NCBI GenBank assembly: GCA_963665845.2
Contig: OY762492.1
Span: forward strand, 2,432,001-2,496,000
Direction of reading: 5' to 3'
DNA length: 64,000 nt
From: Candidatus Poribacteria bacterium
GTDB taxonomy: Bacteria; Poribacteria; WGA-4E; GCA-2687025
Shown here: piece after piece, positions 22,154 through 57,869 of the stretch
Position numbering within the stretch: position 1 is the stretch's first letter
Layout of the letters: every line of letters begins with the position of its first letter
The notes under the pieces: model-generated
What the model was told of the DNA's origin: nothing
The model's input: the letters and a program-made list of their open reading frames with translations, nothing else
The model's database searches: none
Position numbers and translations under genes: made by a program

Positions 22154-22186
22154 AAATAGCGCTAAAATCAAAGCGGGAACTGCCAC
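22154..22186 (+). promoter_or_regulatory. Candidate ECF promoter/operator AAATAGCGCTAAAA-N13-TGCCAC
   Basis: Same motif and spacing at 23639-23671 (+) and 57837-57869 (-). Confidence 0.65.
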
Positions 22187-22213
22187 AAGAGAGCTGAACG
22201 AAAGGAGCGCCGA

Positions 22214-23590
22214 ATGAACGACCGACCGCTAAGCGACTTCGACGCGACGGTTCTTGGGCAGATGGAGCATATCCGCGCCATCGGCAGAAAACGGCTGCGC
22301 AACCAGAACGAACTGGACGACTTCGTCCAAGAGACGGCGGCGCGCGTCTATGCGAACCGCGATCAGTTGCGCGACCCAGCCAAGCTGAAGCAGTGGATCG
22401 CCGGCATCGCGCGGAACACCGCGAACGAGCTGAACCGCGCCGGCTTCCGTAGACGCGAAGAACCGCTGCCGGAAGACGATGGCGAACTGCCGACCATGCC
22501 CGATCCGCATGAAGAACTGGAACGGGCGGAGCGGAACGACCAGATACGTCAAGCGATGAACAGGCTGAACCCGATCGACCGCGACCTGCTGCAGGGGCGG
22601 TATATGGAGGAGGAGTCGTACGCCGATCTTCAGGAGCGGCATGGGCTGTCCTACTCGGCGGTTGGGTTTCGGCTGCATCGCGCGAAGAGCCGTCTTCGGA
22701 AGTTGCTGACCGGAATGAAGGTCGCGTTGGCATTGGCGCTCGCCAACATGAAACAAACCGCATTTGGAGGAATGCTCATCATGACCAAAACGACCAAGAT
22801 CGTTCTCGCAACAGCGTCGGCTCTCATTCTCGCCCTGCTGGGCGGGTATCTCTGGATCGAATACGGCGGCGCGTCGGACGATTCAGATCAGGGGCTGACG
22901 GTTGAGGAACAGTCGCCGATCATCCATGCCCGCGGCGCCGACGACCGCGCCGATTCTTCAGCCGAAACGGAAACGGCAGGCGGAACCGAAACCTTGCTGA
23001 CGGCTGAAGCTCCCTCAACCGGCGGAACAGGCGAGACGGCAGACGCGCCCAACGCCGGCGAGGCGGCGGCCGTTGACGCGCCCGACGCCTTTTCAACCGA
23101 ATTCCAGGAAGGCGTTGAAGAAATGAGCGACTTTGCGAAAAAGATGGTGGCGGAGTTTCCCGAATTCGAGGGCTTGACAGAAGCGGCGGCGGCAATGGGG
23201 GATGTTCTCCTGAAACGCGAAGCGGAATTGCGGCAACAAGGAATGTCCGCTGCCGAACGCAAAACGCAGCTCCGCGCAACATATCAGGCAGAGTCTAAGA
23301 AGATGTCAGAGATCATCGTAGGAGAAATGACCTTCGGAATGGCTCCCGATTTCTCGTCAGTTGATCCCTCGTCCAAGTCATTCGATCCAACCTCGCTGCT
23401 CCAAATGACAGGTCGGTTTCGCGCCTTAACTCAGTTCATCGTTGAAAATCAGCCCAAAAAGTTGGAAACTGTTCTTGGACTTCCAACAGGGAACAATCCG
23501 TCAATGGATGAGATCAATGACATCTTCAACGGTCTCGATTCCTCCATCATTGACGCCGCCGCGCCGTCAATGGAGCCGGAGGACCGGTAA
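22214..23590 (+). CDS. ECF sigma factor fused to TM, acidic stalk and helical domain (type C)
   Basis: DDFVQET, QLRDPAKLKQWIAGIARN (region 2); SYADLQ..GLSYSAVGFRLHRAK.RLRK (region 4); TM IVLATASALILALLGGYLW; DAFSTEFQEGV..PKKLETVLGL. Confidence 0.9.
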   Translation: MNDRPLSDFDATVLGQMEHIRAIGRKRLRNQNELDDFVQETAARVYANRDQLRDPAKLKQWIAGIARNTANELNRAGFRRREEPLPEDDGELPTMPDPHEELERAERNDQIRQAMNRLNPIDRDLLQGRYMEEESYADLQERHGLSYSAVGFRLHRAKSRLRKLLTGMKVALALALANMKQTAFGGMLIMTKTTKIVLATASALILALLGGYLWIEYGGASDDSDQGLTVEEQSPIIHARGADDRADSSAETETAGGTETLLTAEAPSTGGTGETADAPNAGEAAAVDAPDAFSTEFQEGVEEMSDFAKKMVAEFPEFEGLTEAAAAMGDVLLKREAELRQQGMSAAERKTQLRATYQAESKKMSEIIVGEMTFGMAPDFSSVDPSSKSFDPTSLLQMTGRFRALTQFIVENQPKKLETVLGLPTGNNPSMDEINDIFNGLDSSIIDAAAPSMEPEDR

Positions 23591-23638
23591 GAGTTCGTTG
23601 TTCGGCAAATTTTGTTGACGCCGCGTCAAGCCGCATGC

Positions 23639-23671
23639 AAATAGCGCTAAAAACGCTGAGGGCGCTGCCAC
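23639..23671 (+). promoter_or_regulatory. Candidate ECF promoter/operator, copy 2
   Basis: AAATAGCGCTAAAA-N13-TGCCAC followed by RBS GAAAGGAGCG. Confidence 0.65.
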
Positions 23672-23699
23672 AACTGAACCGAACGAAAGGAGCGCTGAA

Positions 23700-24959
23700 A
23701 TGCATGACCGACCGCTAAGCGACTTCGACGCGACGGTTCTAGGGCAGATGGAGCATATACGCGCCATCGGCAAAAATCGGCTGCGCAACCAGAATGAGCT
23801 GGACGACTTTGTCCAAGAGACGGTCGCGCGCGCCTATGCGAACCGCGATCAGCTGCGCGACCCCGCCAAGATAAAGCAGTGGATCGCCGGCATCGCGCGA
23901 AACACGGCGAACGAGATGAACCGCGCGGCGTACCGCAGACGCGAAGAGCCGCTTCCAGACGAAGACCAGCTGCAGGACGACACGCGCGATCCGCATGAAG
24001 AACTGGAACGGGCGGAGCGGAACGAGCAGATACGCGCCGCGATGAACAGGCTGAACCCGATCGACCGCGACCTGCTGCAGGGGCGGTATATGGAGGAGGA
24101 GTCGTATGCCGATCTTCAGGAGCGGCATGGGCTTTCCTACTCGGCGGTCGGGTTTCGGCTGCATCGCGCAAAGCGCCGTCTTCGGAAGTTGTTGACCGGA
24201 ATGAAGGTCGCGTTGGCATTGGCGCTCGCCAACATGAAACGAACAGCATTTGGAGGAGTGCTTATCATGACCAAAACGACCAAGATCGTTCTCGGCGTCG
24301 CGTCCGCCATCATTCTCGCCCTGCTGGGCGGGTACCTGTGGGTCGAATACGGCGCACCATCGGACGACTCGAAGCCTGGGCTGACGGTTGAAGAGCGCGG
24401 GCTGACGGTTGAAGATCAGTCGCCGATCTTCAAGCAGAAATCTGCTGAAACGCCAAAGCAAACCGCCGAAGAAACCTCTGCGCCGGAGCGGCAAGAGAAA
24501 ACGCGCGTTTTTGAAGATTCGATCGCTTCTGAAAAGTCTGCCGCCCCGTCTGACGACAGCGAAAGCGTCGGCGCAACGCAGCCCGACGCCCTGCAAACCG
24601 CTCCGCAAGACCCGTTCACCGTCGAACTTCAGGAGGGGGTCCGCGAGTTTAAGGAGGTGTACCAGCGTCTTGTTGAATTGCATCCAGGTCCGAGGGCAAC
24701 TTACATCGCAGCTCTGCATAATGAAGTTGTCGACAACATGGCGGAATACAATGAGGAGCTGCAAGATCAAAACTTGGAGAGCGCGGAACGCGCCGCCAGA
24801 CTTGCCGCCCGCCTCATCGAGACCTCGCAACGGCTGGAGCCGCAGTACACCGCGATGCTGGCCAAAATACACCCTGAAGAAAAGAAAACATACGCTCAAT
24901 TCATGAAAAACAACACGCCCCGAAAACTGTTCGTTTTTCTCGGGATGCTGCCAGAATAA
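23700..24959 (+). CDS. ECF sigma factor fused to TM, acidic stalk and helical domain (type C)
   Basis: Sigma domain nearly identical to 22214; external domain closest to 8991..9656. Confidence 0.9.
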   Translation: MHDRPLSDFDATVLGQMEHIRAIGKNRLRNQNELDDFVQETVARAYANRDQLRDPAKIKQWIAGIARNTANEMNRAAYRRREEPLPDEDQLQDDTRDPHEELERAERNEQIRAAMNRLNPIDRDLLQGRYMEEESYADLQERHGLSYSAVGFRLHRAKRRLRKLLTGMKVALALALANMKRTAFGGVLIMTKTTKIVLGVASAIILALLGGYLWVEYGAPSDDSKPGLTVEERGLTVEDQSPIFKQKSAETPKQTAEETSAPERQEKTRVFEDSIASEKSAAPSDDSESVGATQPDALQTAPQDPFTVELQEGVREFKEVYQRLVELHPGPRATYIAALHNEVVDNMAEYNEELQDQNLESAERAARLAARLIETSQRLEPQYTAMLAKIHPEEKKTYAQFMKNNTPRKLFVFLGMLPE

Positions 24960-25107
24960 ATCTGTTTTCAGCGCCGCGGGCGGGGGACCTCAAACGGCGT
25001 TCCCTGCCCACTGCGCCGCTGAAATCTGGCAGGTTCTTTTTTTGGCGGCATCGTGTATCATCAGGGCGTCAACCTCTATGAGAAACGACGGGAAGGCGTT
25101 CTGAATC

Positions 25108-56711: not shown

Positions 56712-56877
56712 CTGACCTCATGCTTAAAGTTGGGACATTTGAACCGACGATCGCTCTATTCATGGGAAAAAGCGTCATCAACAATGTCGTCATTCCCGCG
56801 CAAGCGGGAATCCAGAGTCAACCCCGAAACCGTCTGCGTTCACAACCAGAATTGTCCCAGCTCTAAGGTAAGGTCAG
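56712..56877. mobile_element. MITE copy, reverse orientation
   Basis: CTGACCTCATGCTTAAAGTTGGGACA ... TGTCCCAGCTCTAAGGTAAGGTCAG. Confidence 0.8.
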
Positions 56878-56889
56878 CGGTTTAAACGA

Positions 56890-56924
56890 AACGCCGACTT
56901 TGAGACGCGCTCAAGGTCGGCGTT
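56890..56924. terminator. Stem-loop between convergent genes
   Basis: AACGCCGACTTTGAG...CTCAAGGTCGGCGTT inverted repeat. Confidence 0.6.
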
Positions 56925-56943
56925 GACATTCGTTTCGTTCTGT

Positions 56944-57807
56944 CTACTGCGTTTTCAAGACTCCCCAGGAGGTGGACATCTTGCCGGTCGGATCGACGGA
57001 GAGGGTCAGAAGCCCTTCCCCCGCCAGATAGTTTTGAACGAACTCAACGACCAGTTCGCCGCGGAAGTCGTCCGCGGCGGCTGGATTTGGCCACGCTTTC
57101 TGAATAAGGCAGGCAATGATGCCGCCCGTTTCGGAGTGCTTGGCGACGGCAGGATCGGCGTCGTTCGCGCCGGCTTCGGCAAAGGTCGTAACTTCCCAAG
57201 GCGTGCCGGCCAGCGTTTCCAGATGCCACGGACGGTCTGTTGTGAATGCGCCCACTTCCGCCAGCGTGGGCAAATACTTCTCCCCGTTATCGTTCACCTT
57301 CATGGCGTTATTGCGGGAGTTGAAATTGATCGGGGCGTCGAAGATGTTCTGGGCGCCGGCGCCTCCGTTCTCGGCGCTGCGGACGCCTTTCTCGTAGCTC
57401 ATGTAGCCGAACCAGTCGGCGATGTTGATGACGATATTGCCGTCGTCAATAAACTCCTCGATGACGGAGCCGTCCGGCTTGGCGTTCGGAAACGGGTACA
57501 GCCCGCTCGGCATCGTGCCGCATGAGAGAATGAGAACATCCACGACTCCGTTGCCTGTTCGTTTCTCCGTCCATTTTGCGAGCAGCGAATCTTCACCCTG
57601 TTCATCCCCGTCGCCGTAAATGGTGAAGGAATCGAACATGGCGGCGATTCCGTCTTCGATGTCCTTCGTTTCGCGCTCCACCGAAGCGGTTGAAATCCAG
57701 TCAGGGTTGGGCGGTCCGGCATACACAGCCGCTTCAGCCGCCCATGACGTACTTTCCGCGGCAATCATCGCGCCAACGATGAACATGGCGAATATCCAGC
57801 GTTTCAT
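56944..57807 (-). CDS. Secreted protein of unknown function with conserved C-terminal motif
   Basis: ATG 57807 after GAAAGGAGCG; signal peptide; ends SVDPTGKMSTSWGVLKTQ. Confidence 0.8.
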   Translation of the reverse strand: MKRWIFAMFIVGAMIAAESTSWAAEAAVYAGPPNPDWISTASVERETKDIEDGIAAMFDSFTIYGDGDEQGEDSLLAKWTEKRTGNGVVDVLILSCGTMPSGLYPFPNAKPDGSVIEEFIDDGNIVINIADWFGYMSYEKGVRSAENGGAGAQNIFDAPINFNSRNNAMKVNDNGEKYLPTLAEVGAFTTDRPWHLETLAGTPWEVTTFAEAGANDADPAVAKHSETGGIIACLIQKAWPNPAAADDFRGELVVEFVQNYLAGEGLLTLSVDPTGKMSTSWGVLKTQ

Positions 57808-57836
57808 TTTCGCTCCTTTCTTTTTGAAAGCGATCC

Positions 57837-57869
57837 GTTGCATGTGCGCGGTTTATTTTAGCGCTATTT
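57837..57869 (-). promoter_or_regulatory. Candidate ECF promoter/operator, copy 3
   Basis: AAATAGCGCTAAAA-N13-TGCAAC on the minus strand at the same distance from the ATG as copies 1 and 2. Confidence 0.6.

Follow-up and report, generated by a model that had tools for sequence, protein, structure and literature searches.

In a stretch of 64,000 nucleotides from a Candidatus Poribacteria genome (contig OY762492.1; hereafter the window) the same bipartite motif was found upstream of two tandem genes for sigma factors of the extracytoplasmic function (ECF) type, each fused to a membrane anchor, and of a third gene for a putative secreted protein. Judged from sequence, this motif is probably an autoregulatory ECF promoter, read by a family of membrane-anchored sigma factors in front of their own genes. 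The position of the element, its spacing, its conservation and its covariation with residues of the sigma proteins were observed directly. A cognate, autoregulatory ECF promoter had been the original prediction, and it gained support from the family-wide occurrence of the bipartite motif, the fixed spacing and the covariation. The copy upstream of the third gene more probably serves housekeeping transcription, through a promoter that overlaps it.

The promoter element and the sigma fusion genes

A search of the window located the 14-mer AAATAGCGCTAAAA at 22154-22167 (+), 23639-23652 (+) and 57856-57869 (-). The three sites with identical 14-mers, 13-nucleotide spacers and TGCCAC, TGCCAC and TGCAAC were found where they had been reported, and the distances of 49, 50 and 51 nucleotides to the start codons and the common ribosome-binding site (RBS) GAAAGGAGCG were likewise as claimed. 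With up to two mismatches to AAATAGCGCTAAAA there were still only three matches in the window, as compared to a mean of 0.38 in 100 shuffles, none of which reached three. With both strands counted, the exact 14-mer has three copies in the whole 3.98-Mb genome (G000, 90% complete). When it was sought in 60 relatives, four copies were found in a sister species of the same genus (G001) and one each in G010 and G017, there in unrelated context. Our own gene calls for this genome, based on a hexamer model, gave 3,131 genes; the RBS is uncommon but not unique among them, preceding 19 genes, i.e. 16 besides the three. Sites 1 and 2 count as one observation because they lie upstream of tandem paralogs whose sigma domains are 88% identical.

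At site 1 the 14-mer comprises an A-tract and the predicted ECF -35 hexamer GCTAAA (22161-22166), and the predicted -10 element CCACAA (22183-22188) follows 16 nucleotides past this hexamer. Transcription would start near 22196, at a T-G step, ahead of the RBS (22200-22209) and of sigma fusion 1 (22214-23590, 458 amino acids). Site 2 has its predicted -35 hexamer at 23646-23651, its predicted -10 CCACAA at 23668-23673 and a predicted start near 23681 (C-G step), followed by the RBS (23685-23694) and by sigma fusion 2 (23700-24959, 419 amino acids). All these features are on the + strand. Fusion 1 is made up of sigma2, sigma4, one hydrophobic segment and an uncharacterised C-terminal domain. 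Both fusions matched Pfam r2 and r4_2, with no match to r1 or r3, and scored above the cut-off of TIGR02937. In each protein a hydrophobic segment begins at about residue 196 and forms the single hydropathy peak above 1.6. The C-terminal parts had no Pfam match, and inspection of both sequences found no cysteine. Homologs about 90% identical carry the name Candidatus Poribacteria in their sources.

Near matches of the motif pointed to further sigma genes. The genome has 21 Sigma70_r4_2 matches, of which 11 are long fusions of this membrane-anchored family, and a class-wide search detected the family in 23 of 61 genomes (E up to 1e-18). Degenerate forms of the motif precede 10 of the 11 paralogous fusions in this genome: an A-tract with K(C/G)TAAA, 16 nucleotides, and CnWCAW, ending 19-29 nucleotides before the start codon. 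The eleventh paralog, which lacks a motif variant, begins at the stop codon of the preceding paralog. The motif is bipartite and has a fixed spacing, as described originally, but TGCMAC is not its conserved -10 part (CnWCAW is), and the element is wider than had been described.

Motif discovery was done de novo by expectation-maximization, without protein input. From 76 collected upstream regions, the 72 with at least 100 nucleotides were kept; three truncated duplicates and the single gene of G003 were dropped. Within this genus K(C/G)TAAA-16-CnWCAW was recovered in 22 of 23 regions, with a log-likelihood of 189 as compared to 36-45 for shuffled sequences. The 49 upstream regions of four genomes from other genera (G004-G007) gave YGTAAM-16-YGTC (180 versus 40-50 in three shuffles). 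Of 77 matches that lay outside the family of this genome, 58 loci supplied a second set; the 57 genes used, from three other families, gave AAAAAAGT-GCTA(G/A)A-16-(T/C)(G/A)T(C/T)TT (465 versus 44-47). The 16-nucleotide spacer was dominant there (38/53), with 15 or 17 in the remainder. As the A-tract and GCTA recur in the second set, they are old features of the promoter. Of the 22 sigma promoters of this genus, 19 have a pyrimidine-purine step where transcription is predicted to begin, and all 22 have the -10 tail A-A/T. In the sister species a promoter copy (L153, G001:C26:273162) is found before a remnant in which the first sigma codons and the C-terminal module remain and the sigma domain is gone. 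The sigma pair of the sister species (L155, G001:C21:245000-260000) follows DNA that precedes a different paralog (C1:3729978) in this genome, which suggests rearrangement at these loci.

Covariation of promoter bases with sigma residues

Sigma proteins were numbered against E. coli RpoE, and sites were assigned with a pooled matrix made without protein data. Above 6 bits, 57 of the 72 pairs were kept (56 for sigma4) and 15 were dropped; in the second set 53 of 57 were kept and four dropped. Links of RpoE position 171 to -31, of 172 to -34 and of 84 to -13 and -12 are tested specificity links according to PMC7776599.

In the first set R171 went with C at -31 in 12 of 12 pairs (other residues 3/44) and N84 with T at -13 in 13 of 14 (other residues 1/43), while E84 was always paired with a base other than G at -12 (18/18). 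S or T at 172 was found with C at -34 in 7/16 pairs, as compared to 1/40 for other residues. In addition, G76 accompanied A at -11 in 16 of 17 pairs and other residues did so in 1/40. In the second set N84 was paired with TG (23/23) and D84 with CG (9/10); R171 and G76 were absent from all proteins of this set, as were C at -31 and A at -11 from all its promoters. The covariation at 171 and 84 with the bases of the own promoter supports self-recognition. The link between G76 and A at -11 was not found in the available part of PMC7776599, the supplementary specificity table of which may cover it; if confirmed, it would extend the ECF recognition code.

Both window sigmas and the paralog at C1:1723748 have identical residues at 76, 79-81, 84 and 168-178. 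Because of these identical recognition residues crosstalk is predicted among the three, which would read one another's promoters, and "cognate" cannot mean the two sigmas of the window alone, since other paralogs carry the same recognition residues.

From these data we infer that the element is a promoter, that transcription begins at the predicted starts and that the autoregulation is positive. The cytoplasmic sigma2-sigma4 part would be held at the membrane by one helix until a signal frees it by proteolysis, as in other fused ECFs that undergo protease cleavage. The freed sigma would load RNA polymerase on GCTAAA-16-CCACAA, with starts near 22196 and 23681, and would thereby raise its own expression. 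Paralogs have the -35 in common and differ mainly at -12 and -11, in step with residues 84 and 76.

Several observations weigh against this interpretation. D84 was paired with CA or CT in 4/10 first-set cases, and the fit at position 172 was poor in the second set (F with C 5/41, S with C 1/4). The paralogs share descent: independent pairs counted on supported branches of the tree numbered at most four, which is too few for significance, and none was opposed. The second set is moreover a tight expansion. TAAAAT is contained in 15 of the 22 sigma promoters, and many of these rate as good extended -10 elements, which makes housekeeping read-through from them possible. RNA evidence consisted of contigs from four runs of one study, from which neither the start of a transcript nor its level can be read and in which carried-over DNA is possible. 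In these contigs, which derive from related strains, the coding region of the third gene was covered in all four runs and 57752-57874 in none. Over the sigma genes the contigs of three RNA runs gave patchy cover, and two of them crossed site 2.

The third gene and the breadth of the regulon

At site 3 the 14-mer (57856-57869) is identical to that of sites 1 and 2, with GCTAAA at 57862-57857. Its downstream element TGCAACGG (57835-57842) has a CAAC core that fits the ECF -10 and a GG tail that does not. The RBS (57811-57820) and the third gene (56944-57807, 287 amino acids, signal-peptide-like N-terminus) follow, all on the minus strand. Overlapping the 14-mer is a housekeeping-type promoter (57855-57883, minus strand) composed of TTGCGC (57883-57878), 17 nucleotides and TAAAAT (57860-57855). 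It is complete in both this genome and the sister species. The TAAAAT inside the 14-mer would here be the -10 of sigma-A, with TTGCGC 17 nucleotides upstream.

Of the 1,315 genes with a gap of 80 nucleotides or more, 361 have TTG-N20-TAnnnT upstream, as compared to 47 in antisense. The housekeeping promoter consensus of this genome is TTG(A/C)(C/G)N-17-TAnnnT, often with GCGC before the -10. TTGCGC is the commonest -35 in the genome (62/360 sites). In a matrix built from these 360 genome-derived sites, the -35 of the third gene scored at the median and its extended -10 above the median. The third gene also belongs to a recurring housekeeping context, A-tract-GCGS-TAnnnT, which was found at 10 non-sigma genes including this one and at none in antisense. 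As an ECF promoter it is less complete: the tail reads GG/GC where the sigma promoters have A-A/T, no pyrimidine-purine step is present at the ECF start in either genome, and the core-only score of 11.4 is within background. Against the housekeeping assignment, a generic scan with the E. coli consensus found no sigma-70 promoter at the third gene; TTGCGC matches TTGACA at only three of six positions, so that such a scan could miss it.

The secreted protein had originally been proposed as a target of the sigma. The exact 14-mer and the G-CAAC of the downstream half speak for it, but the overlapping housekeeping promoter and the missing -10 tail and start step do not, and we regard target status as a real possibility that is less probable than its opposite. 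The third gene would then have a dual promoter, with a basal sigma-A start near 57850 and, on induction, a start by G76-type ECF paralogs near 57827. Its 14-nucleotide half is the top one among non-sigma upstream positions (22.2 bits), and it is one of only two non-sigma genes among 3,128 to reach at least 20 bits, with none in antisense and none in 30 shuffled matrices. G-C-n-A-C occurs at the exact spacing (background 0.0035, the pattern having been chosen post hoc), and 11 of 13 promoters of the G76 type have that G. In the sister species every base of the 14-mer and of TGCAAC is the same, as against differences at 3/13 spacer and 4/16 downstream bases, and the 10-nucleotide RBS is the one found at only 16 other genes. 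These points, too, count against an assignment to housekeeping transcription alone. On the other side, the -10 half of six bases has a score of -0.8 bits, at background (P 0.089), and by chance 0.09-0.19 non-sigma genes would reach the same total. The tail and the start step are lacking in both genomes, the housekeeping context recurs elsewhere, and TTGCGC is equally conserved in the sister species. Outside the genus the motif was read by eye before none of 26 homolog genome loci with a start found. A metagenome scan gave 20 homolog loci (51-65% identity), and none of the 16 with sufficient flank had the motif; the other four had too little.

Alternatively, the leader of the third gene (promoter and RBS) was copied from a sigma paralog and later converted to a housekeeping promoter, so that the likeness is a relic. 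This is rather unlikely, although the identical 14-mer and identical 10-nucleotide RBS at nearly the same distance would fit it, as would a spacer that by eye shares 11 of 13 bases with the spacer of the C1:2577970 paralog, and the survival of a promoter copy before the sigma-deleted remnant of the sister species. When the leader was used in a local search, no sigma leader was recovered beyond 15-base matches, and the sister species does not show the 34-kb proximity, its genes being on different contigs with different neighbours.

That all three sites should be extended -10 promoters of the housekeeping type (GCGC-TAAAAT), with a merely inherited downstream hexamer, is very unlikely. GCGCTAnAAT is strand-biased in gene upstream regions (18 sense versus 1 antisense among 1,315 genes, sigma genes included), and the frequent TAAAAT of the sigma promoters agrees with such a role. 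However, the housekeeping matrix found its -35 in 0/22 sigma promoters and the T at -7 of the housekeeping -10 was missing in 7/22; sites 1 and 2 have no housekeeping -35 at 16-18 nucleotides, and site 2, which reads TAAAAA, also lacks T at -7. The fixed 16-nucleotide spacing and the covariation with sigma residues would be left unexplained, and in other lineages the homologs have GTAAC or GCTAGA.

The wider regulon that had been envisaged was not found: in this genome the scan of upstream regions showed hardly any targets outside the sigma family. At scores under 20 bits, non-sigma genes had about as many matches in sense as in antisense (9 versus 7 at 12 bits, 5 versus 4 at 14 bits). The relaxed pattern KSTAAAA-15-CNWC gave 85 matches as compared to 115 for the reversed control, and 71 versus 102 in the sister species. 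The best non-sigma promoter match was at C1:3241836-3242939 (GCTAAA-16-CGACAA, 23.7 bits, -10 half P 0.0026). As a second target it was set aside; the homologous leader in the sister species is changed in both halves and precedes another gene, and the closest homologs there have other leaders. It could be a young site. Its product comes from a paralogous family of secreted proteins, more than 40 in number and about 365 amino acids long, which we take to be TolB-type propellers.

That TAGCGCTA is the operator of a LacI-type repressor, as suggested earlier, or of another dimeric repressor is hardly credible: the 8-bp palindrome does have a central CG and is rare (nine sites in the genome), but it is barely kept (5/72 and 0/57 family upstream regions, i.e. 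5/129 family promoters), its symmetry ends at 8 bp, and no LacI gene (PF00356) was found among 26 candidates scored in the 90%-complete genome, as compared to 9 of 14 control genomes positive, other repressor families having been outside this search.

The third-gene protein belongs to a Poribacteria-wide family (34/41 genomes), the atlas clusters of which are mostly unnamed, and had no sequence match in Pfam, NCBIfam or PDB. Its structure model is confident, with a pLDDT (predicted local distance difference test) of 93. In this model the fold weakly resembles class I glutamine-amidotransferase-like folds; fold matches were weak, with template modelling scores of 0.37-0.48 for those with E up to 0.001, and therefore no activity is claimed. 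Multicopy C/G-rich hairpin repeats lie just upstream of site 3 (about 57900-57960) and of site 1 (21990-22110); the repeat upstream of site 3 has about 50 matches in this genome.

Comparison with known systems and an internal start

Like the promoters of autoregulated (group 4) ECFs, the element is bipartite with fixed spacing before its own sigma gene (PMC7776599; PMC7826278; PMC1540707). It also shares with them an AA core in the -35, a short leader, covariation at RpoE positions 171, 172 and 84, and few or no outside targets; 47.8% of ECFs are predicted to have three or fewer promoters (PMC7776599; PMC7826278; PMC1540707). The predicted motif of ECF120, TGTAACAAA / TCGTCAT, is similar to the Poribacteria motif (PMC7826278). 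Unlike the known ECF code, the Poribacteria lineage reads A at -31 (G171) and its G76 paralogs A at -11, and unlike in known ECF promoters the -35 region of this genus also resembles a housekeeping extended -10.

Sigma2-sigma4 with a transmembrane extension is also the layout of ECF57, for which membrane release has been proposed (PMC7826278). However, ECF57 has a conserved cysteine pair in sigma2 and sigma4 (PMC7826278), of which the window fusions have none, and it is restricted to Planctomycetes, whereas the window fusions are from Poribacteria. Its extension has about two transmembrane helices; by hydropathy the window fusions show one clear hydrophobic segment, and in contrast to ECF57 they have no WD40. 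The promoter motif is conserved here and was reported not to be conserved for ECF57. Because the cysteine and taxon features fail, the fusions were not filed in ECF57 despite the similar layout. The word Poribacteria was not found in the available text of the ECF classification (PMC7826278), the remainder of whose supplement may cover the group.

Planctomycetal ECFs have similarly undergone lineage-specific duplication and have unrelated C-termini (PMC7671368). IutY (ECF243) and the sigma-anti-sigma fusions of ECF48, ECF52 and ECF53 are membrane-tethered like the fusions described here, and proteolytic release would be expected by analogy (PMC8999054). Unlike these systems, the window fusions are without the ZAS (zinc-binding anti-sigma) zinc finger, since they have no cysteines. 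Sigma-I factors of cellulolytic clostridia also come as 8-16 paralogs per genome with related A-tract promoters and crosstalk to limit, but they belong to another sigma class, have separate anti-sigmas and control true regulons of enzymes (PMC6056542). Their specificity lies upstream of the -35 A-tract (PMC6056542), whereas in this genus the variation is mainly at the -10. No published work on Poribacteria sigma factors or promoters was found, going by listings and the opening lines of abstracts.

GGAGG(A/C/G) occurs in each of the 11 fusion genes and is followed, nine nucleotides on (12 in one), by an in-frame ATG or GTG just before the membrane helix. In the window this is GGAGGA-N9-ATG (Met190), at 22766-22783 in fusion 1 and at 24252-24269 in fusion 2 (both +). 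The first Gly codon is GGA in 11/11 genes as compared to 19.5% genome-wide, the paralogs not being independent. Several homologs from other families also have GG-N9-Met, some with GGAGG and others with other codons. Downstream on the + strand are two sigma-less copies of the membrane anchor and C-terminal module, at 25108-25929 and 26015-26845, which begin at the Met equivalent to the internal start (Met190); no ECF motif was scored upstream of the first. The internal GGAGG-N9-Met could be functional as a start, or else a scar left by gene fusion; in the first case it may yield a sigma-less second product like those of the two free genes. No report of such internal starts in ECF fusions was found in literature listings and abstract starts.

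At three loci in relatives (L081 in G005, L082 in G007 and L083 in G006) the family sigma continues in frame, with no stop, into other sequence. This sequence resembles what we take to be the start of PurC (SAICAR synthetase), and the run-on fits capture of a downstream gene as an extension. Elsewhere in the window, four tandem genes at 6958-9656 (-) resemble the C-terminal module of the fusions (27-55% identity), and a further tandem family at 328-6944 encodes signal-peptide-bearing proteins. A separate short ECF sigma is encoded at 40895-41491, and its promoter was not among the scan matches listed; the gene after it (region 40895-42639) may be its anti-sigma.

It is tempting, if speculative and on balance improbable, to see in the Poribacteria an expanded, unclassified network of membrane-tethered ECFs. 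Each gene would give a full fusion and a sigma-less membrane module as partner or sensor, and a -10 code at residues 76 and 84 would insulate the paralogs. In this genus the ECF -35 would double as a housekeeping extended -10, so that few base changes could recruit housekeeping promoters such as that of the third gene into the sigma regulon.

That an ECF sigma has its own promoter ahead of its gene is a textbook arrangement, and the motif itself is ordinary. Its practical value is that it provides a large sigma family from an uncultured phylum with a promoter, predicted starts and a residue code to match. The link between G76 and A at -11 and the conserved internal start could, if confirmed, matter more than the motif; the internal start could give a second product from each fusion gene.

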